NCBI RefSeq assembly: GCF_003019035.1
Contig: NZ_CP027447.1
Length of the DNA: 64,000 nt
Source: Escherichia coli
Lineage (GTDB): Bacteria > Pseudomonadota > Gammaproteobacteria > Enterobacterales > Enterobacteriaceae
Reading direction: 5' to 3' (one strand)
Under the pieces are notes generated by a model, which was given only the letters and a program-made list of their open reading frames with translations, made no database searches and was not told where the DNA came from. Shown piece by piece: positions 11,108 to 42,596 of the stretch (position 1 is the stretch's first letter; the number at the start of each line of letters is the position of its first letter). The position numbers and the translations under genes were made by a program.

Positions 11108-12649
11108 ATGCCTTATCTACTTGAAATGAAAAATATTACCAAAACCTTCGGCAGTGTGAAGGCGATTGATAACGTCAGCTTGCGGTTGAATGCTGGCGAA
11201 ATCGTCTCACTCTGTGGGGAAAATGGGTCAGGTAAATCAACGCTGATGAAAGTGCTGTGTGGTATTTATCCCCATGGTTCCTACGAAGGCGAAATTATTT
11301 TTGCGGGAGAAGAGATTCAGGCGAGTCACATCCGCGATACCGAACGCAAAGGTATCGCCATTATTCACCAGGAATTGGCGCTGGTGAAAGAACTGACCGT
11401 GCTGGAAAATATCTTCCTGGGTAACGAAATAACCCATAATGGCATTATGGATTATGACCTGATGACGCTACGCTGTCAGAAGCTGCTCGCACAGGTCAGT
11501 TTATCCATTTCACCTGATACCCGCGTTGGCGATTTAGGACTTGGGCAACAACAACTGGTTGAAATTGCCAAGGCACTTAATAAACAGGTGCGTTTGTTAA
11601 TTCTCGATGAGCCGACAGCCTCATTAACTGAGCAGGAAACGTCGGTTTTACTGGATATTATTCGCGATCTACAACAGCACGGTATCGCCTGTATTTATAT
11701 TTCGCACAAACTCAACGAAGTCAAAGCGATTTCCGATACGATTTGCGTTATTCGCGACGGTCAGCACATTGGCACGCGTGATGCTGCTGGAATGAGTGAA
11801 GACGATATTATCACCATGATGGTCGGGCGAGAGTTAACCGCGCTTTACCCTAATGAACCACATACCACCGGAGATGAAATATTACGTATTGAACATCTGA
11901 CGGCATGGCATCCGGTTAATCGTCATATTAAACGAGTTAATGATGTCTCGTTTTCCCTGAAACGTGGCGAAATACTGGGTATTGCCGGACTCGTTGGTGC
12001 CGGACGTACCGAGACTATTCAGTGCCTGTTTGGTGTGTGGCCCGGACAATGGGAAGGGAAAATTTATATTGACGGCAAACAGGTAGATATTCGTAACTGT
12101 CAGCAAGCCATCGCCCAGGGGATTGCGATGGTACCCGAAGACAGAAAGCGCGACGGCATCGTTCCGGTAATGGCGGTTGGTAAAAATATTACCCTCGCCG
12201 CACTCAATAAATTTACCGGCGGTATTAGCCAGCTTGATGACGCGGCAGAGCAAAAATGTATTCTGGAATCAATCCAGCAACTAAAAGTTAAAACGTCGTC
12301 CTCCGACCTTGCTATTGGACGTTTGAGCGGCGGCAATCAACAAAAAGCGATCCTCGCTCGCTGTCTGTTACTTAACCCGCGCATTCTCATTCTTGATGAA
12401 CCCACCAGGGGTATCGATATTGGCGCGAAATACGAGATCTACAAATTAATTAACCAACTCGTCCAGCAGGGTATTGCCGTTATTGTCATCTCTTCCGAAT
12501 TACCTGAAGTGCTCGGCCTTAGCGATCGTGTACTGGTGATGCATGAAGGGAAACTAAAAGCCAACCTGATAAATCATAACCTGACTCAGGAGCAGGTGAT
12601 GGAAGCCGCATTGAGGAGCGAACATCATGTCGAAAAGCAATCCGTCTGA
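11108..12649 (+). CDS. xylG: D-xylose ABC transporter ATP-binding protein (tandem ABC domains)
   Basis: 513-aa ORF with two Walker A motifs ([18 protein letters not shown]). Confidence 0.95.
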
Positions 12650-13808
12650 AGTGAAATTAGCCGTACCGACATCCGGTGGCTTTTCCGGGCTGAAATCACT
12701 GAATTTGCAGGTCTTCGTGATGATTGCAGCTATCATCGCAATCATGCTGTTCTTTACCTGGACCACCGATGGTGCCTACTTAAGCGCCCGTAACGTCTCC
12801 AACCTGTTACGCCAAACCGCGATTACCGGCATCCTCGCGGTAGGAATGGTGTTCGTCATAATTTCTGCTGAAATCGACCTTTCCGTCGGCTCAATGATGG
12901 GGCTGTTAGGTGGCGTCGCGGCGATTTGTGACGTCTGGCTAGGCTGGCCTTTGCCACTTACCATCATTGTGACTTTGGTTCTGGGACTGCTTCTCGGTGC
13001 CTGGAACGGATGGTGGGTCGCGTACCGCAAAGTCCCTTCATTTATTGTCACCCTCGCGGGCATGTTGGCATTTCGCGGCATACTCATTGGCATCACCAAC
13101 GGCACGACTGTTTCCCCCACCAGCGCCGCGATGTCACAAATCGGGCAAAGCTATCTACCCGCCAGCACCGGCTTCATCATTGGCGCGCTTGGCTTAATGG
13201 CTTTTGTTGGCTGGCAATGGCGCGGAAGAATGCGCCGTCAGGCTTTGGGTTTGCAGTCTCCGGCTTCTACCGCAGTAGTCGGTCGCCAGGCTTTAACCGC
13301 TATCATCGTATTAGGCGCAATCTGGCTGTTGAATGATTACCGTGGCGTTCCCACTCCTGTTCTGCTGCTGACGTTGCTGTTACTCGGCGGAATGTTTATG
13401 GCAACGCGGACGGCATTTGGACGACGCATTTATGCCATCGGCGGCAATCTGGAAGCAGCACGGCTCTCCGGGATTAACGTTGAACGCACCAAACTTGCCG
13501 TGTTCGCTATTAACGGATTAATGGTCGCCATCGCCGGATTAATCCTCAGTTCTCGACTTGGCGCTGGTTCACCTTCTGCGGGGAATATCGCCGAGCTGGA
13601 CGCAATTGCCGCATGTGTGATTGGCGGCACCAGTCTGGCAGGCGGCGTCGGGAGCGTGGCTGGAGCGGTAATGGGGGCATTCATCATGGCTTCACTGGAT
13701 AACGGCATGAGTATGATGGATGTACCGACCTTCTGGCAGTATATCGTTAAAGGTGCGATTCTGTTGCTGGCAGTATGGATGGACTCCGCAACCAAACGCC
13801 GTTCTTGA
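12627..13808 (+). CDS. xylH: D-xylose ABC transporter permease
   Basis: 393-aa polytopic membrane ORF overlapping the xylG 3' end by 23 nt. Confidence 0.95.
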
Positions 13809-23034: not shown

Positions 23035-23508
23035 ATGAAAAAAATACTTGAAGCAATACTGGCGATTAATCTCGCCGTACTTTCCTGTATTGTGTTTATA
23101 AACATTATTTTAAGATATGGTTTTCAGACAAGCATTTTATCTGTAGATGAATTGTCACGTTATTTATTTGTCTGGTTAACATTTATTGGCGCGATTGTGG
23201 CTTTTATGGATAACGCCCACGTTCAGGTCACCTTTCTGGTGGAGAAACTCTCCCCCGCATGGCAGCGACGAGTCGCTCTGGTTACCCATTCCTTAATCTT
23301 ATTTATTTGTGGCGCACTGGCCTGGGGCGCAACGCTAAAAACAATTCAGGACTGGAGCGATTATTCACCGATCCTCGGTTTGCCCATCGGCCTGATGTAT
23401 GCCGCTTGTCTGCCCACCAGCCTCGTTATCGCATTCTTTGAACTGCGTCATTTATATCAACTCATCACGCGTAGCAATTCTCTAACGTCGCCACCGCAAG
23501 GAGCTTAA
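23035..23508 (+). CDS. yiaM: TRAP transporter small permease subunit
   Basis: 157-aa four-helix membrane ORF preceding the large permease. Confidence 0.9.
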
Positions 23509-23510
23509 TC

Positions 23511-24788
23511 ATGGCTGTGCTGATTTTTCTGGGCTGTCTGTTGGGTGGTATTGCTATCGGTTTGCCTATTGCCTGGGCACTGTTGTTGTGCGGGGCGGCG
23601 TTAATGTTCTGGCTGGACATGTTTGATGTCCAGATCATGGCACAAACGCTGGTGAACGGAGCCGACAGCTTCTCCCTGCTGGCGATTCCGTTCTTTGTGC
23701 TGGCGGGTGAAATCATGAATGCGGGCGGCTTGTCAAAACGCATTGTTGACCTGCCGATGAAACTGGTGGGGCATAAACCAGGCGGGCTGGGCTACGTCGG
23801 CGTGCTGGCGGCTATGATTATGGCAAGCCTTTCTGGTTCTGCCGTTGCGGATACCGCCGCCGTTGCCGCTCTACTGGTGCCGATGATGCGCAGCGCCAAC
23901 TACCCGGTCAACCGGGCGGCGGGGCTGATTGCCTCTGGCGGCATTATCGCGCCAATTATTCCCCCTTCCATTCCGTTTATTATTTTCGGCGTTTCCAGCG
24001 GATTATCCATCAGTAAGCTGTTTATGGCGGGCATTGCCCCTGGCATGATGATGGGCGCAACGCTGATGCTTACCTGGTGGTGGCAGGCCAGTCGCCTTAA
24101 TTTACCCCGCCAGCAAAAAGCAACGATGCAGGAAATCTGGCACTCTTTTGTCTCCGGTATCTGGGCGCTGTTTCTTCCAGTCATCATTATTGGCGGGTTT
24201 CGCTCCGGTCTGTTTACCCCTACCGAAGCCGGGGCCGTTGCTGCTTTCTATGCGCTGTTTGTCGCCACAGTTATTTACCGTGAAATGACCTTCGCCACAC
24301 TTTGGCATGTACTCATTGGCGCGGCGAAAACCACCTCAGTGGTAATGTTTCTGGTGGCCTCGGCACAAGTTTCTGCCTGGCTGATTACCATTGCTGAATT
24401 GCCGATGATGGTTTCTGATTTACTGCAACCGTTGGTCGATTCACCGCGTCTGCTGTTTATCGTTATTATGGTGGCTATCCTGATTGTCGGCATGGTCATG
24501 GATTTAACGCCGACGGTGTTAATTCTTACTCCGGTATTAATGCCTTTAGTTAAAGAGGCAGGAATCGATCCGATTTATTTCGGTGTCATGTTTATCATTA
24601 ACTGCTCAATCGGCTTAATTACACCGCCTATCGGTAATGTGCTTAACGTTATTTCAGGGGTGGCAAAACTCAAATTCGATGATGCAGTCAGAGGCGTTTT
24701 CCCTTACGTCCTGGTTTTATATTCATTATTAGTCGTATTTGTTTTTATTCCCGATCTCATCATCCTCCCTTTGAAATGGATTAATTAA
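23511..24788 (+). CDS. yiaN: TRAP transporter large permease subunit
   Basis: 425-aa polytopic ORF. Confidence 0.9.
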   Translation: MAVLIFLGCLLGGIAIGLPIAWALLLCGAALMFWLDMFDVQIMAQTLVNGADSFSLLAIPFFVLAGEIMNAGGLSKRIVDLPMKLVGHKPGGLGYVGVLAAMIMASLSGSAVADTAAVAALLVPMMRSANYPVNRAAGLIASGGIIAPIIPPSIPFIIFGVSSGLSISKLFMAGIAPGMMMGATLMLTWWWQASRLNLPRQQKATMQEIWHSFVSGIWALFLPVIIIGGFRSGLFTPTEAGAVAAFYALFVATVIYREMTFATLWHVLIGAAKTTSVVMFLVASAQVSAWLITIAELPMMVSDLLQPLVDSPRLLFIVIMVAILIVGMVMDLTPTVLILTPVLMPLVKEAGIDPIYFGVMFIINCSIGLITPPIGNVLNVISGVAKLKFDDAVRGVFPYVLVLYSLLVVFVFIPDLIILPLKWIN

Positions 24789-24800
24789 AAGGAAAATATT

Positions 24801-25787
24801 ATGAAATTACGCTCTGTAATCTACGCATTATTCATTGCTGGCCTGGCTGCATTTAGTACATCTTCAATGGCGGCGCAATCTTTACGTTTCGGTTATGAAA
24901 CCTCACAAACCGACTCGCAACATATTGCGGCGAAAAAATTCAATGATTTATTGCAGGAGAGAACCAAAGGCGAGCTGAAATTAAAACTGTTCCCGGACAG
25001 CACTCTCGGTAACGCGCAGGCGATGATCAGCGGCGTACGTGGCGGCACCATCGATATGGAAATGTCCGGCTCGAATAACTTTGCCGGGTTATCACCAGTG
25101 ATGAACTTGCTTGATGTCCCTTTCCTGTTCCGCGATACCGCTCACGCGCATAAAACGCTCGACGGCAAAGTCGGTGATGATCTGAAAGCCTCACTTGAAG
25201 GTAAAGGACTGAAAGTACTGGCCTACTGGGAAAACGGCTGGCGCGATGTCACCAACTCGCGCGCACCGGTTAAAACCCCCGCCGACCTGAAAGGGCTGAA
25301 AATCCGCACCAACAATAGTCCGATGAATATCGCAGCATTCAAAGTCTTTGGCGCTAACCCGATCCCGATGCCGTTTGCCGAAGTCTATACCGGGCTGGAA
25401 ACGCGCACTATCGACGCTCAGGAACACCCGATCAACGTCGTCTGGTCAGCAAAATTTTATGAAGTACAGAAGTACCTTTCTCTGACGCACCACGCCTATT
25501 CGCCACTTCTGGTGGTGATCAACAAAGCGAAGTTTGACGGCTTAACCCCGGAGTTCCAGCAAGCGCTAATTTCATCTGCGCAGGAAGCGGGTAACTACCA
25601 GCGCAAACTGGTTGCTGAAGATCAGCAAAAAATCATCGATGGCATGAAAGAAGCGGGCGTGGAAGTCATCACCGATCTCGACCGCAAAGCCTTTAGCGAC
25701 GCGCTGGGTAATCAGGTTCGCAACATGTTTGTTAAAGATGTTCCGCAGGGTGCTGATCTGCTGAAGGCCGTGGATGAGGTGCAATAA
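24801..25787 (+). CDS. yiaO: TRAP transporter periplasmic solute-binding protein
   Basis: 328-aa ORF with signal peptide. Confidence 0.9.
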   Translation: MKLRSVIYALFIAGLAAFSTSSMAAQSLRFGYETSQTDSQHIAAKKFNDLLQERTKGELKLKLFPDSTLGNAQAMISGVRGGTIDMEMSGSNNFAGLSPVMNLLDVPFLFRDTAHAHKTLDGKVGDDLKASLEGKGLKVLAYWENGWRDVTNSRAPVKTPADLKGLKIRTNNSPMNIAAFKVFGANPIPMPFAEVYTGLETRTIDAQEHPINVVWSAKFYEVQKYLSLTHHAYSPLLVVINKAKFDGLTPEFQQALISSAQEAGNYQRKLVAEDQQKIIDGMKEAGVEVITDLDRKAFSDALGNQVRNMFVKDVPQGADLLKAVDEVQ

Positions 25788-25790
25788 ACC

Positions 25791-27287
25791 ATGACGCAAT
25801 ACTGGCTGGGGTTAGATTGTGGCGGTAGCTGGCTGAAAGCCGGGCTGTATGACCGCGAAGGCCGGGAGGCAGGTGTGCAGCGCCTGCCGCTGTGCGCATT
25901 AAGCCCGCAGCCAGGCTGGGCAGAGCGCGATATGGCAGAACTGTGGCAATGCTGCATGGCTGTCATTCGCGCCCTGCTTACCCATTCCGGCGTTAGCGGG
26001 GAACAAATAGTGGGTATCGGTATCTCCGCACAGGGAAAGGGCTTGTTTTTGCTGGATAAAAACGACAAGCCGCTCGGGAATGCTATTTTGTCCTCGGACC
26101 GCCGGGCGATGGAAATCGTTCGTCGCTGGCAGGAAGATGGCATCCCGGAAAAACTCTACCCGCTGACCCGACAAACCTTGTGGACCGGGCATCCGGTGTC
26201 GCTGTTACGCTGGCTGAAAGAGCACGAACCGGAACGCTACGCGCAAATTGGCTGCGTGATGATGACGCACGACTACCTGCGCTGGTGTTTAACCGGCGTC
26301 AAAGGCTGCGAAGAGAGCAATATTTCCGAGTCCAATCTCTACAACATGAGTCTTGGGGAATATGACCCGTGCCTCACCGACTGGCTGGGGATCGCTGAAA
26401 TCAACCACGCCCTGCCGCCTGTTGTCGGATCTGCCGAAATTTGCGGGGAAATCACCGCTCAGACAGCCGCACTGACCGGTCTGAAAGCGGGCACGCCCGT
26501 TGTCGGCGGCCTGTTTGATGTGGTTTCCACAGCACTCTGCGCCGGGATCGAAGACGAATTTACCCTTAATGCGGTGATGGGCACCTGGGCGGTGACCAGC
26601 GGCATAACCCGTGGTTTACGTGACGGTGAAGCGCATCCATATGTCTATGGTCGCTACGTTAACGATGGTCAATTTATCGTTCACGAAGCCAGCCCCACCT
26701 CTTCCGGCAACCTCGAATGGTTTACCGCACAGTGGGGAGAAATCTCGTTTGATGAGATTAACCAGGCCGTTGCCAGCTTGCCGAAGGCCGGGGGCGATCT
26801 CTTTTTCCTGCCGTTCCTGTACGGCAGCAACGCCGGATTGGAGATGACCAGCGGTTTCTACGGGATGCAGGCCATTCATACCCGCGCACACCTGTTGCAG
26901 GCCATTTATGAAGGCGTGGTGTTCAGCCATATGACCCATCTCAACCGGATGCGCGAACGTTTTACTGATGTGCACACCCTGCGCGTCACTGGCGGCCCGG
27001 CGCATTCCGATGTCTGGATGCAAATGCTGGCGGACGTCAGCGGTCTGCGTATCGAGCTGCCGCAGGTGGAAGAAACCGGCTGCTTTGGTGCGGCACTTGC
27101 CACCCGCGTCGGCACCGGAGTTTATCGCGATTTCAGCGAAGCCCAACGTGATTTACAGCACCCGGTACGCACCCTGCTGCCGGATATGACCGCCCATCAG
27201 CTTTACCAACAAAAATACCAACGCTATCAGCATCTCATTGCCGCACTTCAGGGCTTTCACGCCCGCATCAAGGAGCACACATTATGA
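25791..27287 (+). CDS. lyxK: L-xylulose / 3-keto-L-gulonate kinase
   Basis: 498-aa FGGY-family kinase ORF. Confidence 0.9.
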   Translation: MTQYWLGLDCGGSWLKAGLYDREGREAGVQRLPLCALSPQPGWAERDMAELWQCCMAVIRALLTHSGVSGEQIVGIGISAQGKGLFLLDKNDKPLGNAILSSDRRAMEIVRRWQEDGIPEKLYPLTRQTLWTGHPVSLLRWLKEHEPERYAQIGCVMMTHDYLRWCLTGVKGCEESNISESNLYNMSLGEYDPCLTDWLGIAEINHALPPVVGSAEICGEITAQTAALTGLKAGTPVVGGLFDVVSTALCAGIEDEFTLNAVMGTWAVTSGITRGLRDGEAHPYVYGRYVNDGQFIVHEASPTSSGNLEWFTAQWGEISFDEINQAVASLPKAGGDLFFLPFLYGSNAGLEMTSGFYGMQAIHTRAHLLQAIYEGVVFSHMTHLNRMRERFTDVHTLRVTGGPAHSDVWMQMLADVSGLRIELPQVEETGCFGAALATRVGTGVYRDFSEAQRDLQHPVRTLLPDMTAHQLYQQKYQRYQHLIAALQGFHARIKEHTL

Positions 27288-27946
27288 GCCGACCACTTCT
27301 GCAACTGGCCCTCGACCACTCATCACTTGAAGACGCACAGCGCGACGTGATGCTGTTAAAAGACAGCGTCGATATCGTCGAAGCGGGCACCATTCTCTGT
27401 TTAAACGAAGGGCTTGGCGCGGTGAAAGCCTTGCGCGAACAGTGCCCGGATAAAATCATCGTTGCTGACTGGAAGGTCGCCGACGCGGGTGAAACGCTCG
27501 CGCACCAGGCGTTTGGCGCAGGTGCTAACTGGATGACCATCATCTGCGCCGCACCGCTCGCGACGGTAGAAAAAGGTCACGCAATGGCGCAACGCTGCGG
27601 TGGTGAAATTCAGATAGAGCTGTTCGGTAACTGGACGCTGGACGACGCCCGCGACTGGCATCGTATTGGCGTGCGGCAGGCCATTTATCATCGTGGTCGT
27701 GATGCACAGGCCAGCGGGCAACAGTGGGGCGAAGCCGATCTGGCACGCATGAAGGCACTTTCCGATATCGGCCTTGAGCTTTCCATTACCGGCGGGATTA
27801 CCCCTGCTGACCTGCCGCTGTTTAAAGATATCCGTGTGAAAGCGTTGATTGCCGGGCGGGCGCTGGCAGGCGCGGCAAATCCGGTGCAGGTGGCTGGCGA
27901 TTTCCATGCACAAATTGATGCCATCTGGGGAGGTGCGCGTGCGTAA
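27284..27946 (+). CDS. sgbH: 3-keto-L-gulonate-6-phosphate decarboxylase
   Basis: 220-aa [21 protein letters not shown]...; ATGA overlap with lyxK. Confidence 0.9.
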
Positions 27947-28799
27947 TCATCCGTTAGGGATTTATGAAAAAGCGCTGGCGAAAGATCTCTCCTGGCCGGA
28001 GCGGCTGGTGCTGGCAAAAAGCTGTGGCTTTGATTTTGTCGAAATGTCGGTGGATGAAACCGACGAACGGCTCTCACGTCTTGACTGGAGCGCCGCACAA
28101 CGTGCTTCGCTGGTCACTGCGATGATCGAAACGGGTGTTGGGATCCCGTCGATGTGCCTGTCCGCACATCGTCGCTTTCCTTTTGGTAGCCGTGACGAGG
28201 CAGTGCGCGAACGGGCGCGGGAAATCATGAGTAAAGCGATTCGCCTGGCGCGCGATCTCGGCATTCGCACCATTCAACTGGCGGGTTATGACGTCTATTA
28301 CGAAGATCACGACGAAGGCACCCAGCAACGTTTTGCTGAAGGGCTGGCGTGGGCGGTCGAACAGGCGGCGGCATCACAAGTCATGCTGGCGGTGGAGATT
28401 ATGGACACCGCGTTTATGAACTCCATCAGCAAATGGAAAAAGTGGGACGAGATGCTCGCCTCGCCGTGGTTCACCGTCTACCCGGACGTCGGCAACCTCA
28501 GCGCCTGGGGCAATGATGTTCTCGCCGAACTGAAACTGGGCATTGACCGTATCGCCGCGATCCACCTGAAAGATACTCAACCAGTCACCGAGCAAAGCCC
28601 CGGACAGTTCCGTGATGTGCCGTTTGGCGAAGGCTGCGTCGATTTCGTTGGCATCTTCAAAACGCTGCATGAACTGAACTATCGCGGATCATTTCTGATT
28701 GAGATGTGGACCGAAAAAGCCAAAGAGCCGGTGCTGGAGATTATTCAGGCGCGGCGCTGGATTGAAGCGCGTATGCAGGAGGCAGGTTTTATATGTTAG
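27939..28799 (+). CDS. sgbU: L-xylulose-5-phosphate 3-epimerase; GTG start
   Basis: ORF 27849-28799; known protein ([13 protein letters not shown]...) begins at the GTG at 27939, overlapping the sgbH stop. Confidence 0.88.
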
Positions 28800-29488
28800 A
28801 GCAACTGAAAAACGACGTGCTGGCGGCGAATCTGGCGCTTCCCGCTCACCATCTGGTGACGTTCACCTGGGGCAATGTCAGCGCGGTAGACGACACGCGG
28901 CAATGGATGGTAATCAAACCTTCCGGCGTCGAGTACAACGTGATGACCGCCGACGATATGGTAGTGGTTGAGATAGCCACCGGTAAGGTGGTGGAAGGCA
29001 GAAAAAAACCCTCGTCCGACACGCCAACGCATCTGGCGCTTTACCGTCGCTATGCCGAAATTGGCGGTATTGTGCATACCCACTCGCGCCACGCCACCAT
29101 CTGGTCGCAGGCCGGGCTGGATCTCCCCGCCTGGGGCACCACGCACGCTGATTACTTCTATGGTGCCATCCCCTGCACGCGACAGATGACCGCAGAGGAG
29201 ATCAACGGCGAGTATGAATACCAGACCGGCGAAGTGATCATTAAAACCTTCGAAGAACGTGGGTTGAACCCGGCACAAATCCCGGCTGTACTGGTGCATT
29301 CTCACGGCCCGTTCGCCTGGGGAAAAAACGCCGCCGATGCGGTGCATAACGCCGTGGTGCTGGAAGAGTGCGCCTATATGGGCCTGTTCTCGCGCCAGCT
29401 TGCACCGCAGCTCCCTGCGATGCAAAACGAACTGCTGGATAAGCACTACCTGCGTAAACATGGGGCCAATGCCTATTACGGGCAGTAA
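28793..29488 (+). CDS. sgbE: L-ribulose-5-phosphate 4-epimerase
   Basis: 231-aa class II aldolase/epimerase ORF. Confidence 0.9.
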
Positions 29489-29519
29489 TCCCTCACGCCG
29501 GGGCTTCATTGCCCCGGCA

Positions 29520-30335
29520 CTACGAATTGATATGTTCCTTGCTGTAACGTCGCTTCCACGCAGCTGGCGTTAAGCCGGTGTGTTTGCGAAAAATCTGCCG
29601 GAAATAGCCGACGTCATTAAACCCGCACAACGCCGCCACTTCCGTGAGCGATCGCGCTTCGCTAATTAACAGCTTTTCGGCTTCGCGCACCCGCTGGCGG
29701 TGGATTGCTTCTGTTAACGTCAGATGAAACACCCGCCGATAGACGCGCCCAAGATAATCGGCATTGCAGTACAGCTCGCGGGCTAAAAGCGCCGTGGAAA
29801 GCGGGCGGTGATATTGCGTGCGAATCAGTTTCTGCGCTTTCCAGGCAAGGGTGGTGCCTGCACCATCGGCCTGTTCATCAAGACGCGCGTCACGGGTGAG
29901 CTGCTGCAAAATCAGCAGCACAATAAACTCCAGCGCCGGAGTGCGTTGATGCTTTTCCTGTTCGCTTAAGAACTGGCGAAACAAGGCCACCAGCACCTGC
30001 GGATCGGCAACCTTAGTTTGTTGCGGCACGCTAAGATGAGTGAGCCAGCGCGGGTCGCTATCCGGCGCTTTAACCTCAAAATGCAGCCAGTAAAATTTGA
30101 GATCGGCGGGAAAATCCTCTACCCCAACATGCTGTCGGTTCGGCCAGAGTAATAAACTCTCTCCCGCATCGACCAGAAATATCCGCTCTTCTTCCTGAAT
30201 CGCTAATCGACCTTTTTCGACAAAGATAATTTCCCATGACTCCAGCCGCCTTGCCGGATGCCTCCCAACGCCACGGGAAATAAATAATCCACCATTTTGC
30301 ACTTTAATCGGTAACGTCATGGATAATTCGAGCAT
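29520..30335 (-). CDS. AraC-family transcriptional regulator (cupin sensor + C-terminal AraC HTH)
   Basis: 271-aa ORF with C-terminal AraC-type HTH (...LTEVAALCGFNDVGYFRQIFRKHTGLTPAAWKRR); divergent from the transporter gene. Confidence 0.8.
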   Translation of the reverse strand: MLELSMTLPIKVQNGGLFISRGVGRHPARRLESWEIIFVEKGRLAIQEEERIFLVDAGESLLLWPNRQHVGVEDFPADLKFYWLHFEVKAPDSDPRWLTHLSVPQQTKVADPQVLVALFRQFLSEQEKHQRTPALEFIVLLILQQLTRDARLDEQADGAGTTLAWKAQKLIRTQYHRPLSTALLARELYCNADYLGRVYRRVFHLTLTEAIHRQRVREAEKLLISEARSLTEVAALCGFNDVGYFRQIFRKHTGLTPAAWKRRYSKEHINS

Positions 30336-30383
30336 TGATATGTAATTTCCCGCTTATTCATTAATGATTAAACACATTACCTT

Positions 30384-30398
30384 TTGATTATTAATCAA
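30384..30398. promoter_or_regulatory. Perfect palindrome TTGATTATTAATCAA in the AraC / transporter divergent intergenic region (candidate operator)
   Basis: 15-bp perfect inverted repeat flanked by further ATTAAT direct repeats. Confidence 0.35.
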
Positions 30399-30560
30399 AA
30401 ACATTAATTTCACCTGATCCATTTCACACTTTTAAATTCAGGTCGGAATCGTCACCTTTTTTTACTCTTTTCTCGCCTTGTTGATATTCCCGTTCACGGC
30501 AGAATTAATCAGGTCATTGCAATAAAACTAAAAATTGCTCCCTATTCACGAGGAATATCT

Positions 30561-31961
30561 ATGACCTCTACACCGATTACTGCCGCTGATATCGCTAAAG
30601 GTAAAATTGACGATGCGTTATCTGTACGGGAAAAAATAAGCTACGGCCTGGGTGACGCAGGCGGCACCGTAATAACTTGCCTGATCATGAACTTTCTCAC
30701 CTTTTTCTACACCGACGTTTTTGGCTTAACTCCGGCGCTGGTCGGCACGCTGTTTATTGCACTGCGCGTGTTTGATGCCATCTCCGACCCGGTGATGGGC
30801 GTCATTGCCGACCGGACGCAAAGTCGCTGGGGGCGCTTTCGTCCGTGGCAGTTGTGGATTGCCATTCCCATCGGCATTATCGGCATCCTGACGTTCACCG
30901 TGCCAGATGCCAGCATGGGAGTAAAAATCGCCTGGGCGTTCGGTACTTACCTGCTCCTTTCAGTCGGTTATACCGCCATCAACGTACCGTACTGCGCGCT
31001 GATCAACACCATGACCACCCGCCACAATGAAGTGATCTCCTGCCAGTCCTGGCGATTCGTTCTCTGCGGCGTAGCGGGATTTCTGGTTTCGGTTGGCCTG
31101 CCGTGGATGGTGGATCTCTTCGGTCAGGGTAATGCCGCGCGCGGCTATCAACTGGGCGTCGGCGTGCTGTGCGCCATCGCTGTGGTGATGTTCCTGTGCT
31201 GTTTCTTCTGGGTTCGTGAACGGGTGCCACTCTCCACAATGGGGAAATTTACCCTGCGCGAACATCTTGCCGGGCTGCGGAACAACGACCAACTGCTGCT
31301 GATGCTGGTCATGTCTTTCCTGCTGATTAACGTCTTTAATATTCGCGGCGGTGGGTATATGTACTTCATTACCTACGTCTTACAAGGCAGTACGGGCTAC
31401 ACGTCGCTGTTCTTCACTATGGTCACCTTCGCCTCCATTATCGGCTCGGTGATTGTCAGCCCGTTAACGCGGCGTTTCGATACCGTCAAAATTTACTACT
31501 ACACCAACCTGCTCCTCGCCGCGCTGGCGGTGTTGATGTGGTTCCTGCCTTCTGGCCCGGCTTATCAAACGCTGTGGCTGGCGGTGATCCTCGGTAATGG
31601 CGTGATTCTTGGCTTCACATTGCCATTGCACTTCTCATTGATGGCCTTTGCCGATGACTACGGCGAGTGGAAAACCCGCGTACGTTCTTCCGGCATGAAC
31701 TTCGCCTTCAATCTGTTTTTCATCAAACTGGCCTGGGCCTCCAGCGCCGGGATCATCAGCCTGCTGTTTATTTTTGTCGCCTACCAGCCAGGCGTGGAAA
31801 ACCAGACCGCCAGTTCGCTTGGCGGGATCACAGCAATGGAAACATTGCTGCCTGCGCTGTTCCACCTGCTGCTGGCGATGGCGATCCGCTTTTGCAAACT
31901 CAATAACCCTATGATGTCACGCATTGCTAGCGACCTGCGTCAGCGTCATGTACAGCCTTAA
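30561..31961 (+). CDS. GPH-family (glycoside-pentoside-hexuronide) sugar:cation symporter, MFS superfamily
   Basis: 466-aa polytopic ORF with the GPH signature [25 protein letters not shown]. Confidence 0.8.
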
Positions 31962-31971
31962 GGAGCACAAG

Positions 31972-33951
31972 ATGAACATTTCGGAAGTCGATCTGCATAA
32001 ACTGACGGTCAGCGATCCGTTCCTCGGTCAGTACCAACAACTGGTCCGCGACGTGGTGATTCCTTATCAGTGGGATGCCTTGAACGATCGTATCCCAGAA
32101 GCGGAACCCAGCCATGCGATTGAAAACTTTCGCATTGCCGCCGGACTTCAGGAGGGTGAATTTTACGGGATGGTGTTTCAGGACAGCGACGTCGCCAAAT
32201 GGCTGGAAGCGGTAGCCTGGTCGCTGTGCCAGAAGCCGGACGCCGAACTGGAAAAAACCGCCGACGAGGTGATTGAACTGATCGCTTCCGCCCAGTGCGA
32301 AGATGGCTATCTCAATACTTACTTTACGGTAAAAGCGCCCGAAGAACGCTGGAGCAATCTGGCGGAGTGCCATGAACTTTACTGCGCCGGTCATCTGATT
32401 GAAGCCGGAGTCGCCTTCTTCCAGGCCACGGGCAAGCGGCGCTTGCTGGAAGTGGTTTGCCGTCTGACCGATCATATCGACAGCGTATTTGGTCCAGGTG
32501 AAAGTAAGTTACACGGTTATCCTGGTCACCCGGAAATTGAACTGGCACTAATGCGCCTGTATGAAGTGACCGAAGAGCCGCGCTACCTGGCGCTGACGAA
32601 CTATTTTGTCGAACAGCGTGGTGCGCAACCGCACTATTACGACCAGGAATATGAAAAGCGCGGGCAGACCTCGCACTGGCACACCTACGGCCCGGCGTGG
32701 ATGGTGAAAGACAAAGCCTACAGCCAGGCACATTTGCCCATCGCACAGCAGCAAACCGCCATTGGTCACGCGGTACGTTTTGTCTACCTGATGACCGGCG
32801 TCGCGCATCTCGCCCGTTTAAGTCACGATGAAAGCAAGCGTCAGGATTGCTTGCGGCTGTGGAACAATATGGCCCAGCGTCAGTTATATATTACCGGCGG
32901 CATTGGCTCACAAAGCAGCGGCGAAGCGTTCAGCAGCGATTACGATCTGCCGAATGACACGGTTTACGCCGAAAGTTGTGCTTCCATCGGCCTGATGATG
33001 TTCGCCCGACGAATGCTGGAAATGGAAGGCGACAGTCAATATGCCGATGTGATGGAGCGCGCGCTGTACAACACTGTGCTCGGCGGCATGGCACTGGATG
33101 GCAAACATTTCTTCTATGTGAATCCGCTGGAAGTACATCCAAAATCGCTGAAATTCAACCATATCTACGATCACGTTAAGCCGATCCGCCAGCGTTGGTT
33201 TGGCTGCGCTTGTTGTCCGCCAAATATCGCCCGCGTACTGACCTCGATTGGTCATTATCTCTACACGCCGCGTGAAGATGCGTTGTATATCAACATATAC
33301 GCAGGAAACAGCATGGAAGTGCCGGTAGAAAATGGCACGTTGCGCCTGCGGGTTAGCGGGAACTATCCGTGGCAGGAACAGGTGACAATTGCGGTTGAAT
33401 CGCCCCAGCCGGTGCGTCATACGCTGGCTTTACGTCTGCCGGACTGGTGCACACAGCCGCAGATCATATTGAATGGGGAAGAGGTCGAGCAGGATATTCG
33501 TAAAGGGTATTTGCACATTACCCGCGAATGGCAGGAGGGCGACACGCTGAATCTAACTTTGCCAATGCCAGTACGTCGCGTTTACGGTAACCCGCTGGTG
33601 CGTCACGTCGCCGGAAAAGTGGCGATTCAGCGCGGCCCGCTGGTGTATTGCCTGGAACAGGCCGACAACGGCGAGTCACTGCATAACCTGTGGCTGCCCG
33701 CCGATGCGCCATTTACGACATTTGAAGGCAAGGGATTGTTCCGCCATAAGATCTTAATCCAGGCACCGGGTTACCGGTATGAACAGAGCAATCCAGAGCA
33801 GCAACCGCTGTGGCATTACGACAGTGCGCCAGCCAAACGCCAGCCGCAAACTCTGACGTTTATTCCGTGGTTTAGCTGGGCTAACCAGGGTGAAGGCGAA
33901 ATGCGGATCTGGGTGAATGAGGAAAAGCATTGCCATCCGGAGGTTGGATAA
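31972..33951 (+). CDS. Glycoside hydrolase family 127 (DUF1680; beta-L-arabinofuranosidase HypBA1-like); start at the ATG preceded by AGGAG
   Basis: 659-aa protein; E-S-C and C-A-C-C-P-P-N motifs about 77 residues apart match the GH127 Glu/Cys3 zinc-cysteine catalytic centre. Confidence 0.75.
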   Translation: MNISEVDLHKLTVSDPFLGQYQQLVRDVVIPYQWDALNDRIPEAEPSHAIENFRIAAGLQEGEFYGMVFQDSDVAKWLEAVAWSLCQKPDAELEKTADEVIELIASAQCEDGYLNTYFTVKAPEERWSNLAECHELYCAGHLIEAGVAFFQATGKRRLLEVVCRLTDHIDSVFGPGESKLHGYPGHPEIELALMRLYEVTEEPRYLALTNYFVEQRGAQPHYYDQEYEKRGQTSHWHTYGPAWMVKDKAYSQAHLPIAQQQTAIGHAVRFVYLMTGVAHLARLSHDESKRQDCLRLWNNMAQRQLYITGGIGSQSSGEAFSSDYDLPNDTVYAESCASIGLMMFARRMLEMEGDSQYADVMERALYNTVLGGMALDGKHFFYVNPLEVHPKSLKFNHIYDHVKPIRQRWFGCACCPPNIARVLTSIGHYLYTPREDALYINIYAGNSMEVPVENGTLRLRVSGNYPWQEQVTIAVESPQPVRHTLALRLPDWCTQPQIILNGEEVEQDIRKGYLHITREWQEGDTLNLTLPMPVRRVYGNPLVRHVAGKVAIQRGPLVYCLEQADNGESLHNLWLPADAPFTTFEGKGLFRHKILIQAPGYRYEQSNPEQQPLWHYDSAPAKRQPQTLTFIPWFSWANQGEGEMRIWVNEEKHCHPEVG

Positions 33952-34062: not shown

Positions 34063-34473
34063 TTAAACGCCCGGCAATACACGCCGGGCAGCTTCTGCCA
34101 GAAACGCACTTCTGTTGGCGTAGTCTGGGTTATTGCGCACGTAGGTATCAATCTTGTTCAGTAACCTTTTCGGCATCGTAATATTGATACGTTCAGCCCG
34201 ACCTTCGAACTGATTCATATTGATATCCACCAGCAACCATTGCCCGCCAATAAAGTCCTGCGCACGCTGGACCAGATGTGTTTCCACAGAGCCTGGAAGC
34301 GGCAACTCTTCATCCATCTCGCATAAGGTTTCGAAGTGCGCGACCAGTGCACTTCGCGCATCCTGGAAAGCGTTGTCCAGCGTATCACCAGCAAAATAAC
34401 AGCCTGGAACATCAGGGAAAAAACCGCTGGCGCTGCCGTCAGGATCACTGTGGATATAGGCGGGATAAAACAT
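34063..34473 (-). CDS. hicB: HicB-family antitoxin (N-terminal RNase H-like fold, C-terminal ribbon-helix-helix)
   Basis: 136-aa ORF 16 bp downstream of the hicA-like gene; C-terminal RHH-like segment ITMPKRLLNKIDTYV... Confidence 0.75.
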   Translation of the reverse strand: MFYPAYIHSDPDGSASGFFPDVPGCYFAGDTLDNAFQDARSALVAHFETLCEMDEELPLPGSVETHLVQRAQDFIGGQWLLVDINMNQFEGRAERINITMPKRLLNKIDTYVRNNPDYANRSAFLAEAARRVLPGV

Positions 34474-34489
34474 ATTGCCTCCTGAAATT

Positions 34490-34675
34490 TTAAAATGTTA
34501 AACCAGCCTGACGCCCAATTTGCGCCAGCGTACCGGGCTTAATATCTTTTTTAGGGTGCGGAACCGTCACCAGACCCGGATGAACAGGGTGGCGGAACTG
34601 ATGATGACTGCCACGGGTTCGAATATGTTCCCAGCCATGCTGCTTCAGGATGGCGATCACGTCTGCACTTTTCAC
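34490..34675 (-). CDS. hicA: HicA-family mRNA interferase toxin (YcfA-like); apparent GTG start
   Basis: 61-aa ORF with the GSHH motif (IRTRGSHHQFRHP); toxin-first gene order. Confidence 0.75.
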   Translation of the reverse strand: MKSADVIAILKQHGWEHIRTRGSHHQFRHPVHPGLVTVPHPKKDIKPGTLAQIGRQAGLTF

Positions 34676-36596: not shown

Positions 36597-37892
36597 TTAC
36601 AGCGGATAATGCGCGAAGTACACGGCTTGCTGGTCATTAATTTTCTTCTCTTGCGCAAACCCTTCTTTAACAATTGTCCGTAAATCAGCTCGAGCCGTAT
36701 TATCAGAGACGCCCAGGCTCGCGCTAATTTCAGCAACTGTGTACTCTTTCCCCGGATTGGCGAGCATCACATTCAGGAGCGTTACCTGGCGCGGATTCAG
36801 GCGTTTAAGCACACCAGAGCTAAACAGCACACTATCGAGTTTTGCGCTTCGTTGTGTAATTTCATCGATATGCTGCTGCCAGTTTTGCAGAGCACGTTTA
36901 ATGACACCCGCCTGATATTCAAGGAAATAAGTCAGATCCATACCATCTGATTCAGTGTACTGGTAGCTGGCGGCATATTTGACCGGTGCAGCATGAAGCA
37001 AACGGCTGATGGAAATATATTTAAAGACATCGTAGCCCGATTTCAGCATATACCAGTAAAACAGCGCCCGACTGGTGCGCCCGTTGCCATCCCGAAACGG
37101 ATGTTCATGGGCCAGCATAAAATGCAGAATGCAGGCACGGACCAACGGATGAATATACCCTTCATGGCTGTTTAACCACTGGCAAACTTTTTCCAGCCGT
37201 TCCGGTAACAATGCCGCAGCGGGCGGTTGATGCACTATACTGCCATCATAGTCGGCGATCACAACATCATCTGTTTCACGAAATTCTCCCGGACGATATT
37301 TCGCGTCATTGATTCCACCCATACCAATGGCATGTAACTGGCGAATAAGCGCAGGTGTCAGCGGTTCTGCGAGTAAGTGCGGAATTTCCGCCATCAGCCG
37401 GGCATTTCCCGCAATCATATGCTCGTCTTCAGTGCGTGGCGACCGCCCTGTTTCCAGCATTTTTCTCGCCACCAGCGTTGTAGTATTCGCACCCTCCAGC
37501 TGGGAGCTGGTGATCGGCTCTTCCAGGCGTAACTGGCTTAACTCGGCTCCGGCCCCGCGTAACCGTTCAGTCTGATCTTTCAGCGCCAGCGCGGTAGCAC
37601 GTTTGTCGACAAGCTCGCACGCTTCTGCAATCACCGGGGTAATGTTGAATCCGGCCTGTTCACCCGCTTCATTGCAATAATTAATTCGTTGGATCGCCGC
37701 GTTGCGCGCCAGACGGGTAAGCGTCCACGCCACATCGACGTTTTCTCCTTTTTTGATGCGGTACTGCAACTCATCAAAAGGCAGATAACGTCCTTTTTCA
37801 TCGGTAACCCGGTTAAAGCGCAGGTGGGCCAGGAGTTCCTCACCCGATAAGTGTGATAAAGGAATAAGTCCGGGAGGTGATTTGATAGCCAT
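36597..37892 (-). CDS. Class II Fic-domain protein (putative AMPylase) with N-terminal inhibitory motif and C-terminal helix-turn-helix-like region
   Basis: 431-aa ORF; canonical Fic motif [12 protein letters not shown]; inhibitory-helix motif S-S-Q-L-E-G; C-terminal winged-helix-like segment. Confidence 0.85.
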
Positions 37893-39363: not shown

Positions 39364-41208
39364 TTATTTTTCCGGAAATAATAATGCGTCGCGCAATAAA
39401 TGATCATTTCCACGACGACGCGTAAAGCCAATGCGGTCAAAATATTCCAGAATCTGAATTGCCAGCTTTCGGCCTACGCCTAAGCGATCGCGGAAATCCG
39501 CCGCGCAGGTTGAACCACACTCCTGATCGAGATCGCGGATCATATTGGCAAATTCGACAATCCGATCGTTACGGTAATAACGATCTTTAACGATCGCGGT
39601 AATTATCCCCTGCTGCGCCGCCTGGCGTAGAGTCAGGCGCATTGCCTGCTCGTCGGTTCCCGTCTCTTTTGCCAGATCACGCACCCACCACGGTTCGTCA
39701 CCAAACAGCGGCTCTGCTTTTTGCCAGATGGCCTGCTGCTCTTCGCTGAAGCCCGCTTTGTGATCCGGCAGATGCAGCCAGCCGTGATGACTGAGGATGT
39801 CGCCGCTTTCGCGCATCTTTTCAATCAGCAACAGTACCAGCGCTTCATCTTCCATTGGCAACGCCATACGTCGCAGACGTTCGCGCCCAGGACCAGGCTC
39901 ATCGCGATGTTGCTCATGATAAGTCGCTAATGTGTCGATAATTTTCCGCTGCCAGCGGGCGGCAACTGGCGCATTCAACAAGCTGTAACCAGCCTGAATA
40001 TAGCCAGGCTGTTGCAGCAGTTCGCGCATCCCTTCGCCGTTGAGCTGCCGTGCCCAGGCGAAATCCGCAAGGTTAACCGCGCCGCGTTCCAGATGAACAG
40101 ATAACGCATCGGCATCGCTCTGCGCCCGTGCAAGAGACGCCAGCCATTGCAGATATTCCGGCTTACGCTTACCGCGACGCGGCGGGTTAAGCATCACCAC
40201 ACGCGCCCCCGCCAGCGTGTTGCGGGCCGAGATATCGCGCAGCACTATGCGATCGTTATCCGCCAGCCACAGCGGCGTGTCGAACACCAGCTCGGCAAGG
40301 TTATCTTCCAGCAGCGAAACGCGTCCCGTAACGTGGCTGGCGGCGTGGTGAATATGCAGCGGCTGCCACTGGGTCAGCGGTGTATGGGTTTGAAGCTCAA
40401 CTATCACCCGCGTAAACGGCTCCGGCGGCGCATCGGCAAGCAACCAGTCGCCACGGTTAATCTGTTCTTTTTCCGCATCACCCGCGATGTTAAGCGCAAT
40501 ACGCTGCCCGGCATGAGCTGCATCTGTTGGCTGATTTTGCGCATGTAGCGCACGCACGCGCATCGGTTTATTTACACCAGTCAGCCAGATTGAATCGCCT
40601 ACCTTCACTTCCCCGCTTAACGCCGTACCGGTGACGACCAGCCCGGCACCTTTTACGGTAAATGCGCGGTCGATCGCGAGGCGGAAACTATGTTGGCTGG
40701 CGTGTTCGCGTTCTGGTAACTGAAGCAGATGCTCGCGCAGGGCATCAATTCCCCGACCTTCGGTTGCTGCGGTGATAAACAGTTTTGCCTCAGCAAAACC
40801 GTATTCCCGCAGCACCTCCTTTACCTGGCGTTCAACCTCATCAACACGCGCTTCGTCCACGCGATCGGCTTTGGTCAGCGCCACTGTCAGCATCGGATTA
40901 CCGGTCAGCTGCAAAATCGCCAGATGCTCACGGGTCTGTGCCATCACGCCGTCATCGCACGCCACCACCAACAGCGCGTGATCGATACCACCAACGCCCG
41001 CCAGCATGTTGGAAAGAAACTTTTCATGACCGGGTACGTCGATAAAACCAGGCACGCGACCATCCGGCTGCGGCCAGTAGGCATAGCCGAGATCGATGGT
41101 CATGCCGCGCTTTTTTTCTTCCGGCAGACGGTCGGCATTTACGCCAGTAATCGCCTGCAATAAGGTTGTTTTGCCGTGGTCAACGTGTCCGGCAGTCGCA
41201 ATAATCAT
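39364..41208 (-). CDS. selB: Selenocysteine-specific translation elongation factor
   Basis: 614-aa ORF with N-terminal GTPase motifs ([11 protein letters not shown]). Confidence 0.95.
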
Positions 41209-42596
41209 TTCAACAACATCTCCAAAAACCGTTGCTCATCTTCAAGGCAGCGTAAATCCAGCCACAATCGTCCGTCATAAATACGACCAATCACCGGCAC
41301 TGGCAATTCACGCCAGCGGGCGGCTAATGACTCAAGGTGGCTACCGCGTCCATCATGGGGTGTAAACGTTAATGCCGCGCTCGGCAGGCGATCAACCGGC
41401 AGCGAACCACTGCCAATCTGCGAAAGACATGGCATAACCTGTACCGCAAACTCCGCGCCGTAATGTGCGGCAAGGGGAGCCTGTAAACGTTGTGCCTGGA
41501 TTTGAATGACCTCTGCGCTGCGGGTAAGCAGGCGCAGGGTCGGTAATTTTTTACTCAGAGCTTCAGGGTGTAAATAAAGACGCAACGTGGCTTCCAGCGC
41601 CGCAAGGGTCATTTTATCCGCGCGTAATGCACGCTTCAGCGGGTGGCTTTGCAGGCGGGCGATCATCTCTTTTTTACCAACGATAATCCCTGCCTGCGGC
41701 CCGCCTAACAACTTGTCGCCGGAGAAACTCACCAGACTGACGCCCGCCGCAATCAACTCCTGCGGCATTGGCTCTTTCGGCAAACCGTACTGGCTAAGAT
41801 CGACCAGCGAGCCACTGCCTAAATCAGTCACCACGGGAATATCCAGTTCTTTGCCAAGCGCCACCAGTTCAGCTTCGTCTATCGCTTTGGTGAACCCCTG
41901 AATGCTGTAGTTACTGGTATGTACTTTCATCAACAGTGCGGTATTTTCATTCACCGCCTGACGATAATCATTCGCGTGCGTGCGGTTGGTGGTCCCTACT
42001 TCGTGTAGGGTGCAGCCTGCCTGACGCATAACATCGGGAATACGAAACGCGCCGCCAATCTCCACCAGTTCGCCGCGAGAAACCACCACCTCTTTCCCGC
42101 TGGCAGTGGCCGCCAACATCAATAACACCGCCGCCGCATTGTTATTAACGATACAGGCATCTTCCGCCCCCGTAATACGGCACAGCAGCTGCGCCAGCGC
42201 ACGATCGCGATGTCCGCGTCCGGCGTCGTCCAGATCGTACTCGAGGGTCACTGGCGAACGCATAGCCTTCGTAACGGCTTCCACCGCGGCTTCCGCCTGT
42301 AAAGCTCGCCCAAGGTTGGTATGCAGCACGGTTCCCGTCAGGTTGATCACCGGACGCAGCGCGCTTTGCGCCTCTTTCGTCAACCGGGCATCAACTTCTT
42401 GCGCCCAGTTTTCACACCATGCGGGCAGCGTCTGGCTGCCACGAATCACTTCTCGCGCTTCGTCGAGCATCTGACGCAACAATTCCACCACGCGGGTGTG
42501 ACCATAAGTATCACGCAAAGAAAGGAAGGAGCTATCGCGCAATAAGCGATCAATAGCCGGAAGTTGACTATAGAGGGAACGCGTTTCGGTTGTCAT
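41205..42596 (-). CDS. selA: L-seryl-tRNA(Sec) selenium transferase
   Basis: 463-aa ORF; 4-nt overlap with selB. Confidence 0.95.

Follow-up and report, generated by a model that had tools for sequence, protein, structure and literature searches.

Short overlaps between co-directional genes have been sorted into classes, namely −4 (NTGA), −1 (TAATG or TGATG) and −8 (NTGNNTGA) (Huber et al. 2019 and 2023; Brown & Wade 2025). For other Escherichia coli pairs at the spacings treated below, experiments have demonstrated termination-reinitiation coupling (PMC10666635, PMC12548453). Such coupling is best between −4 and +3, decays with longer overlap and is absent at about −25; measurements have found it to be the norm in E. 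coli where pairs are spaced at −4 or −1. Of all co-directional gene pairs in E. coli, 24% are spaced between −8 and +6.

Two described operons can be set beside the locus studied here. The his operon of K-12 has consecutive overlaps at hisD/C (−4), C/B (−1), B/H (−1), H/A (−1), A/F (−19) and F/I (−7); with six in a row in this operon, overlap chains are not rare. Like the sgb products, the his products are successive enzymes of a pathway, for the most part not complex subunits, and a −7 junction occurs in both operons. The L-ascorbate (ula) operon of E. coli encodes the paralogous enzyme trio UlaD, UlaE and UlaF (46%, 58% and 61% identity) in the same order with tight junctions, and ulaE/ulaF overlap by 1 nt. 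In contrast, ulaD and ulaE are 9 nt apart with a free-standing GGAG between them, the trio has neither a −8 nor a −7 overlap, and UlaD lacks the four-residue tail that makes sgbH and sgbU overlap.

The locus lies in a 64,000-nt stretch of E. coli DNA (contig NZ_CP027447.1), referred to below as the window. Its gene content, gene order and divergent repressor gene (yiaJ/plaR) are those of the yiaK-S operon of E. coli. In the PGAP annotation of E. coli SCU-301, a strain 100% identical to the window over 25000-30000, and in that of K-12 MG1655, the nine genes of the operon (yiaKLMNO-lyxK-sgbHUE) follow yiaJ, with gene limits identical to those read here (Table 1). In the literature, the genes from yiaK to sgbE are regarded as one operon repressed by YiaJ/PlaR, all of them going up in a yiaJ deletion (PMC6237786, PMC6958661).

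Table 1. Genes, overlaps and Shine-Dalgarno (SD) sites in the window; SD strength is the duplex energy with the 3′ end of 16S rRNA
Feature	Position	Strand	Details
lyxK (L-xylulokinase, FGGY family)	25791..27287	+	ATG...TGA, 498 aa; ORF, translation and FGGY kinase profile matches
sgbH	27284..27946	+	ATG...TAA, 220 aa; NCBIfam PRK13305, 444.6 bits, residues 1-220 of 220
sgbU (L-ribulose-5-phosphate 3-epimerase)	27939..28799	+	GTG...TAG, 286 aa; TIGR00542, 519 bits; PRK13210, residues 1-285 of 286
sgbE (L-ribulose-5-phosphate 4-epimerase)	28793..29488	+	ATG...TAA, 231 aa; PRK12347, 508 bits, residues 1-231 of 231
lyxK/sgbH overlap, ATGA, −4	27284..27287	+	sgbH ATG 27284-27286; lyxK TGA 27285-27287; direct reading
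sgbH/sgbU overlap, GTGCGTAA, −8	27939..27946	+	sgbU GTG 27939-27941; sgbH TAA 27944-27946; direct reading
sgbU/sgbE overlap, ATGTTAG, −7	28793..28799	+	sgbE ATG 28793-28795; sgbU TAG 28797-28799; direct reading
SD of sgbH, AAGGAG	27270..27275	+	within the last lyxK codons (Lys-Glu), 8 nt before ATG; −7.7 kcal/mol
SD of sgbU, GGGGAGG	27927..27933	+	conserved Trp-Gly(-Gly) codons of the SgbH C-terminus, 5 nt before GTG; −12.6 kcal/mol
SD of sgbE, AGGAGG	28777..28782	+	within sgbU codons Gln-Glu-Ala, 10 nt before ATG; −10.3 kcal/mol
xylG (11108-12649)/xylH (12627-13808) overlap, 23 nt	12627..12649	+	xylH ATG at 12627; xylG stop ends at 12649
SD of xylH, GAGGAG	12613-12618	+	−8.5 kcal/mol, best of six in-frame candidates
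selA (41205-42596)/selB (39364-41208) overlap, ATGA, −4	41205..41208	−	direct reading

The preliminary description had reported a chain of overlaps through lyxK-sgbH-sgbU-sgbE, of 4, 8 and 7 nt, and two further overlaps, xylG/xylH and selA/selB. All coordinates and lengths in the chain proved correct on direct reading, on translation and against both annotations, and both of the further lengths are correct on direct reading. Because the NCBIfam profiles cover SgbH, SgbU and SgbE over the residues given in Table 1, the ends of these proteins are full length; the overlapping pairs consist of full-length members of curated families, encoded on the same strand and conserved in 80 species. The published K-12 gene-spacing table (Huber et al. 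2023) lists all five overlaps with these values, so that they were already known and tabulated for K-12. All five overlaps are genuine and accurately placed; they represent an ordinary, common and already catalogued form of operon packing that conceals nothing new.

Set against the known classes, lyxK/sgbH and selA/selB both have the textbook −4 ATGA form and fall within the efficient coupling range, while sgbH/sgbU (−8), of the third most common class, and sgbU/sgbE (−7) lie just outside the optimum. The −7 spacing shares its reading phase with −4 and −1, although it is not an enriched class, and here it is preserved through a rare second codon (Leu) in sgbE. Unlike the his operon, a constitutively important biosynthetic operon with six such junctions, the sgb chain has three and belongs to a normally silent catabolic operon. 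Among the 21 closely spaced co-directional pairs in the window, six overlap; in a simple binomial model that takes each junction to overlap at a rate of 0.2-0.35, at least three overlaps in a row among the operon's eight junctions have a probability of 0.04-0.18. Each overlap is real and has been kept in evolution; the chain itself is statistically unremarkable.

Within E. coli, nine divergent sequences (93-100% identical), with variation at 13% of sites, all share one junction geometry. Across Enterobacterales the order lyxK-sgbH-sgbU-sgbE is kept in 80 of 80 loci, with junction spacings from −16 to +14 nt, mostly −8 to +4. At lyxK/sgbH the −4 ATGA is present in 70 of the 80 loci; the A that completes the TGA is kept though sgbH codon 2 shifts among Ser, Asn, Thr and Lys, and a GGAG-type SD motif for sgbH is retained in nearly all 80 species, even where the sequence of the LyxK tail differs. 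The sgbH/sgbU spacing takes many values: +2 (23 loci), −8 (21), −1 (15), +1 (14), −4 (5) and +4 (1), with one doubtful call in Hafnia. The automatic sgbU start in this Hafnia locus (GTG, +14, SD −0.7) is probably wrong, as starting 18 nt further upstream, at an in-frame ATG, would produce an ATGA junction, and it was left ambiguous. The motif TGGGGAG, the SD of sgbU, is found in most species, with TGGAGA or TGGAGG in a few such as Serratia and Pectobacterium. At sgbU/sgbE the spacing is −7 (ATG-YTA-R) in 70 of 78 loci, −4 in seven and −16 in one, which makes an overlap in all 78 with no gaps; the sgbE SD in most other genera is GAAGGAGG, at a spacing of 6-7 nt. Conservation of the overlaps, a check put forward in the preliminary description, was thus found for tight spacing in 80 species, and for exact lengths only in part, with sgbH/sgbU varying. 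At all three sgb junctions the SD of the downstream start is embedded in the upstream gene and conserved across species; the conserved trait is close spacing with an embedded ribosome-binding site, rather than any given overlap length.

The chain had also been taken to imply tight translational coupling. This stands in part: the geometry is in or near the coupling range at −4, and probably so at −7 and −8, and the spacing is conserved, whereas the genes have strong SDs of their own, the sgbH/sgbU junction is labile and xylG/xylH is at −23. From these comparisons, termination-reinitiation coupling at the three sgb junctions and at selA/selB is plausible, and independent initiation there is equally possible; each sgb gene could initiate de novo because it has its own strong SD without unusual structure. 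Without a yiaJ deletion, laboratory K-12 does not express the sgb operon, which makes routine ribosome-profiling data uninformative for it, and a literature search found no coupling results from reporter fusions or ribosome profiling for this operon.

Very probably, these are genuine, correctly annotated short overlaps that work as ordinary operon junctions, with a share of initiation that we infer to be due to reinitiation. In this scheme, lyxK, sgbH, sgbU and sgbE would be read from a single mRNA, with each downstream start 5-10 nt past an SD in the last codons of the preceding gene and at most 8 nt from its stop. A ribosome ending the upstream gene would terminate on the next start site, be held there by the SD and be able to reinitiate; free 30S subunits could also bind directly at this exposed SD. 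Production of the four consecutive pathway enzymes would then be roughly co-ordinated.

It is less likely, though still to be reckoned with, that the overlaps arose neutrally from the packing of genes and the drift of stop codons, each gene initiating at its own SD with little contribution from upstream translation. The strong SD at every start and the unremarkable local structure fit such an origin, as do the ula paralogues with their +9 and −1 spacings and the wandering of sgbH/sgbU through +2, +1, −1, −4 and −8 in cassettes that stay intact; indeed, the drift of this junction from +2 to −8, together with the +9 of ulaD-ulaE, indicates that overlap as such is not required there. The four enzymes, moreover, are not subunits of a complex, being marked ‘CMPLX not’ in the published K-12 table (Huber et al. 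2023), and a loss or shift of stop codons would be expected to produce the rare codon and the tail extension described below. What neutral drift does not readily accommodate is a spacing that never exceeds +14 nt in 80 species, an unbroken record of overlap at sgbU/sgbE, the persistence of the A of TGA in the ATGA junction despite changes in sgbH codon 2, and the coupling normally measured between E. coli genes spaced at −4 or −1.

The overlap lengths themselves are probably a historical outcome of where the stop codons lie. SgbH has a tail of some four residues past the conserved Trp-Gly in the Escherichia/Klebsiella/Citrobacter group and in a few other genera, and there it ends in the CGT-AAY codons of sgbU; the stop of sgbU comes from a rare Leu codon, TTA or CTA, as the second codon of sgbE. 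The TTA at this position is the sole TTA/CTA/TCA codon in sgbE, and YTA accounts for 10% of Leu codons in the remainder of sgbE across species. The sgb junctions offer a clean comparative example of how overlap lengths arise via shifts in stop-codon position and of how an existing overlap limits codon choice in the partner gene. Recoding sgbE codon 2 or sgbU codons 2-3 shifts the stop of the preceding gene, a point relevant to operon re-engineering and to genome-wide rare-codon recoding.

Of the three junctions, only sgbU/sgbE overlaps in every species examined (78/78), and its paralogue ulaE/ulaF overlaps too. L-ribulose-5-phosphate is the compound held responsible for the arabinose sensitivity of araD mutants. 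There is a slim chance that the sgbU/sgbE overlap reflects selection for keeping output of the 4-epimerase locked to 3-epimerase output, which would avoid a build-up of L-ribulose-5-phosphate; if so, coupling at this junction would be a safeguard against a toxic intermediate, not a means of setting complex stoichiometry.

Of the two models accepted for translational coupling, the one by RNA unfolding would need the downstream ribosome-binding sites to be locked in mRNA structure until the upstream gene is translated, and is highly improbable here. When the region from −50 to +40 was folded and compared with dinucleotide shuffles, no unusually stable structure was seen at the sgbH, sgbU or sgbE starts (z of +0.86, +0.43 and +0.03, respectively, within a range of −0.95 to +1.85 over the starts folded), and the mean unpaired probability from SD to start was ∼0.45-0.57 at the three sgb junctions, similar to the 0.31-0.65 at other starts of the operon and at xyl starts. 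A division of the cassette by internal promoters or terminators was considered and set aside: promoter-like sites inside the operon show no excess (8 versus 9.9 ± 3.6 expected), and terminator-like hairpins, 17 versus 12.3 ± 3.1 expected from shuffles, are in marginal excess and all weak, with stems of 5-8 bp and 3-4 G-C pairs. Reading by eye, we saw no obvious slippery heptamer for a programmed frameshift or fusion at the three junctions.

The preliminary description would have given way if downstream start codons with better ribosome-binding sites were in use; at the sequence level, a scan of all in-frame ATG, GTG and TTG codons gave none at the junctions. Against a background SD energy with a mean of −2.1 kcal/mol (7% of positions at or below −6 and 1.8% at or below −8), the annotated sgbH, sgbU and sgbE starts have the strongest SDs among nearby in-frame starts, the next downstream starts reaching −1.0, −6.2 and −2.1 kcal/mol, respectively. 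The GTG of sgbU has the strongest SD of nine in-frame candidates and is invariant in the nine E. coli sequences; GTG at this position is almost confined to Escherichia, the homologous codon in other genera being ATG except in one Enterobacteriaceae isolate. At their N-termini, SgbH aligns with UlaD from residue 1, SgbU with UlaE to within 2 residues and SgbE with UlaF. That the overlaps are annotation artefacts, with true starts downstream and no overlap between the genes, has next to no likelihood, for although start calls disagree for 15-25% of prokaryotic genes generally (PMC9581028) and sgbU has, besides its GTG start, a second in-frame GTG 6 nt upstream, the downstream starts have weaker SDs and would drop N-terminal residues that align with UlaD/E/F and with the full-length profiles, the start position is conserved in 80 species, and the upstream GTG (27933) is lost in four of the nine E. 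coli sequences. A GTG at 25875, 84 nt inside lyxK, has a better SD than the annotated start; a start there would cost the protein its conserved N-terminal FGGY motif and would leave the overlaps unaffected. The import of these results goes little beyond good annotation, in that gene starts, including the GTG of sgbU, are confirmed in a poorly studied, normally silent catabolic operon.

Outside this operon, xylG/xylH had been said to show the same coupling as the sgb chain. Its overlap is longer than the efficient coupling range, and −23 is a spacing with almost no coupling in a systematic study; coupling at this junction is therefore doubtful. For SelA-SelB, −4 is the typical spacing across 254 genomes (published table, Huber et al. 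2023). A further overlap of 1 nt, missed in the preliminary description, joins mtlD and mtlR (TAATG at 57283-57287).

On this stretch of the Escherichia coli chromosome, the four genes from lyxK to sgbE, whose operon has xyl genes on one side and selAB on the other, are joined by overlaps of 4, 8 and 7 nt (spacings of -4, -8 and -7; positive values are gaps). All coordinates in the preliminary description were borne out by direct reading and translation, and the same gene limits are found in the PGAP annotation of strain SCU-301 (NZ_CP051751.1) and the curated annotation of K-12 MG1655. SCU-301 is 100% identical over 25000-30000, and across 45 kb just 7 mismatches and 19 small gaps separate it from the window. 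The upstream junctions of the operon are also tight (yiaK-L +11, yiaL-M +117, yiaM-N +2, yiaN-O +12, yiaO-lyxK +3). Tight junctions missing from the earlier list are mtlD/mtlR, yibI-yibH (+2), yiaM-yiaN and yiaO-lyxK.

Features of the window, with start-region pairing energies in kcal/mol (lyxK-sgbE limits from direct reading and translation)
Feature	Position	Strand	Codons, shared bases or size	Annotated start	Next downstream candidate
lyxK	25791-27287		ATG...TGA		
sgbH	27284-27946		ATG...TAA	-7.7	-1.0
sgbU	27939-28799		GTG...TAG	-12.6	-6.2
sgbE	28793-29488		ATG...TAA	-10.3	-2.1
xylH				-8.5	-0.1
lyxK/sgbH overlap	27284-27287		ATGA		
sgbH/sgbU overlap	27939-27946		GTGCGTAA		
sgbU/sgbE overlap	28793-28799		ATGTTAG		
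xylG/xylH overlap	12627-12649		23 nt		
selA/selB overlap	41205-41208	minus	ATGA		
mtlD/mtlR, 1-nt overlap	57283-57287		TAATG		
yiaM-yiaN junction	23508-23511		+2		
yiaO-lyxK junction	25787-25791		+3		
Antisense ORF	28796-29509	minus	237 aa		
AraC-family regulator	29520-30335	minus			
MFS transporter	30561-31961				
Glycoside hydrolase family 127 (GH127)	31972-33951				
Deletion end points, K-12	29624-33644				
HicA/HicB pair	34063-34675	minus			
Fic-family gene	36597-37892	minus			
RHS core gene	43531-47571		1,346 aa		

The overlaps are not annotation artefacts. All in-frame ATG, GTG and TTG codons at each junction were scored for pairing between the 3′ end of 16S rRNA and positions -20 to -3. 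Better downstream starts, which the preliminary description had named as counter-evidence, were not found for sgbH, sgbU, sgbE or xylH, the next candidates all having weaker energies; at random window positions the mean is -2.1, and -8 is attained by just 1.8%. The N-termini of SgbH, SgbU and SgbE align, to within two residues, with those of the paralogues UlaD, UlaE and UlaF, and NCBIfam profiles match end to end (1-220 of 220, 1-285 of 286 and 1-231 of 231 residues, respectively). An extra in-frame GTG at 27933, which precedes the sgbU start by 6 nt, is GGC in four of nine E. coli sequences, while the GTG at 27939 and the preceding GGAGG do not vary among the nine.

The chain is not unusual; it is ordinary and already catalogued. 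In K-12, 707 of 2,987 co-directional pairs (24%) are spaced at -8 to +6, most frequently at -4, -1 and -8, and the same published table lists lyxK/sgbH (-4), sgbH/sgbU (-8), sgbU/sgbE (-7), xylG/xylH (-23) and selA/selB (-4), with the sgb enzymes marked as non-subunits of a complex (Huber et al. 2023). Overlaps occur in 6 of the window's 21 close co-directional pairs (mtlD/mtlR included), and at a per-junction rate of 0.2-0.35 a run of at least three among eight junctions has a probability of 0.04-0.18. The his operon has a longer chain of six consecutive overlaps (-4, -1, -1, -1, -19, -7). The paralogous junctions of the L-ascorbate (ula) operon are +9 and -1, in contrast to -8 and -7 in sgb.

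Within E. coli the sgbH-sgbU segment is present in 4,856 of 5,426 complete genomes (570 had no match) at an unusually high diversity for the species, 93-97% identity, with 1,692 genomes at 90-95% and a single one at ≥99%. We compared the window with K-12 and seven genomes across the identity range, and the -4/-8/-7 geometry is present in all of them despite 13% variable sites. The whole lyxK-sgbE cassette shows unusual diversity and decay within the species. Two of the seven sampled strains have a lyxK annotated as frameshifted, and truncated or disrupted copies of lyxK occur in E. albertii (locus L014) and Lelliottia (L052). Genome H42 has the first 22% of the query only, adjoining a MipA/OmpV gene.

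One SgbU scan of representative genomes gave 80 loci (SgbU identity 76-98%), from Escherichia to Serratia, Pectobacterium, Pantoea, Erwinia, Xenorhabdus, Hafnia and Tolumonas. The order lyxK-sgbH-sgbU holds in 80/80, and sgbE follows in all 78 where it was recovered. With stops and starts anchored by tblastn, lyxK/sgbH is ATGA in 70 of 80 loci (otherwise -1 or +3, three each by choice of nearest start; +11 to +14, three; lyxK disrupted, two), and the A completing TGA is retained while sgbH codon 2 varies (Ser, Asn, Thr, Lys). The sgbH/sgbU spacing is labile: +2 (n = 23), -8 (21), -1 (15), +1 (14), -4 (5), +4 (1) and one doubtful Hafnia call. Only the Escherichia group combines a GTG start with the -8 overlap; isolate L079 has GTG at -1, and the homologous codon is ATG in all remaining genera. 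For sgbU/sgbE we found ATG-YTA-R (-7) in 70 of 78 loci, NTGA (-4) in seven, -16 in one and gaps in none. What is conserved across the 80 loci is therefore very close spacing with a Shine-Dalgarno (SD) motif inside the final codons of the preceding gene, and not a set overlap length. Klebsiella indica TOUT106 carries two copies of the four-gene cassette on separate contigs (L033 and L068; SgbU identity to the query 93% and 83%, sgbH/sgbU -8 and -1). A homologue of yiaO (TRAP transporter binding protein) was detected next to lyxK, upstream, only in the Escherichia group, Phytobacter (L020), Affinibrenneria (L042) and Pseudocitrobacter (L092), so conservation reaches further for the four catabolic genes than for their association with the yiaMNO transporter.

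UlaD ends in ...LWG, and SgbH of Enterobacter, Serratia and others stops 1-3 codons past the same Trp-Gly. In a group including Escherichia, Klebsiella, Raoultella and Citrobacter SgbH has a tail of a few added residues (GARA in the window), with a TAA stop built from sgbU codons 2-3 (CGT-AAY); the Trp-Gly codons (TGG-GGA-G) also serve as the sgbU SD site. To the sgbU stop, sgbE codon 2 contributes its last two bases and codon 3 its first. Codon 2, TTA, is the sole TTA, CTA or TCA among the gene's 231 codons, and over the 78 loci TTA and CTA occupy this position in 90%, versus 10% of Leu codons elsewhere in sgbE; in one genome it is TCA, and there SgbU extends to the -16 overlap. Such patterns are the marks that would be expected of a stop-codon shift followed by dual-coding constraint. 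The overlap at sgbU/sgbE in 78/78 species, with ulaE/ulaF likewise overlapping, is the sole mildly interesting remainder. Selection tying 4-epimerase synthesis to 3-epimerase synthesis could account for it, and has a low probability, since dual-coding constraint alone would keep the overlap too. The antisense ORF mirrors the entire sgbE, codon-aligned, and ends exactly at the TTA of codon 2, which makes it a codon-usage shadow ORF and no gene.

Published work treats the operon as one YiaJ/PlaR-repressed unit in which every gene rises once yiaJ is deleted (PMC6237786; PMC6958661). A pattern scan found no excess of promoter-like sites within it (8 vs 9.9 ± 3.6 in shuffled sequence) and a marginal excess of terminator-like sites (17 vs 12.3 ± 3.1). 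Tight coupling along the chain, as initially proposed, is a reasonable default reading. Reporters of other E. coli pairs showed efficient reinitiation at native short overlaps, gone toward ∼40 nt distance (PMC10666635), and according to a 2025 review coupling is best at -4 to +3 and drops with longer overlap; a systematic study, as cited there, found none at -25 (PMC12548453). Judged by these published ranges, good candidates for termination-reinitiation are lyxK/sgbH and selA/selB, with sgbH/sgbU and sgbU/sgbE as reasonable ones. The xylG/xylH and selA/selB overlaps, said to show the same, are indeed 23 and 4 nt long, but coupling was overstated for xylG/xylH, a poor candidate near the uncoupled range that more likely uses its own GAGGAG site. 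De novo 30S loading at the strong, exposed SD sites is equally possible, and coupling is only partly supported, because sequence cannot divide initiation between the two. The SD-to-start regions have an unpaired probability of 0.45-0.57 at the three sgb junctions. Coupling via RNA unfolding is not indicated by the folding model, as the -50 to +40 regions of the starts lack unusually stable structure (z of +0.86, +0.43 and +0.03 at the three sgb junctions).

Downstream (3′) of sgbE lie the AraC-family regulator, MFS transporter and GH127 genes. K-12 lacks ∼4.0 kb of this 29520-33951 region, and its pseudogenes ysaC and ysaD, aligning to the deletion edges, are remnants of the regulator and GH127 genes. 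A HicA/HicB toxin-antitoxin pair separates the GH127 gene from aldB, at the place of yiaT-yiaU-yiaV-yiaW in K-12, and a Fic-family gene stands between aldB and yiaY; their placement suggests that insertions or replacements near aldB are specific to the strain. In the window the RHS core gene is a single intact ORF, and in SCU-301 it is annotated as frameshifted, which, given the 19 small gaps, looks like an assembly indel error in one of the two sequences.
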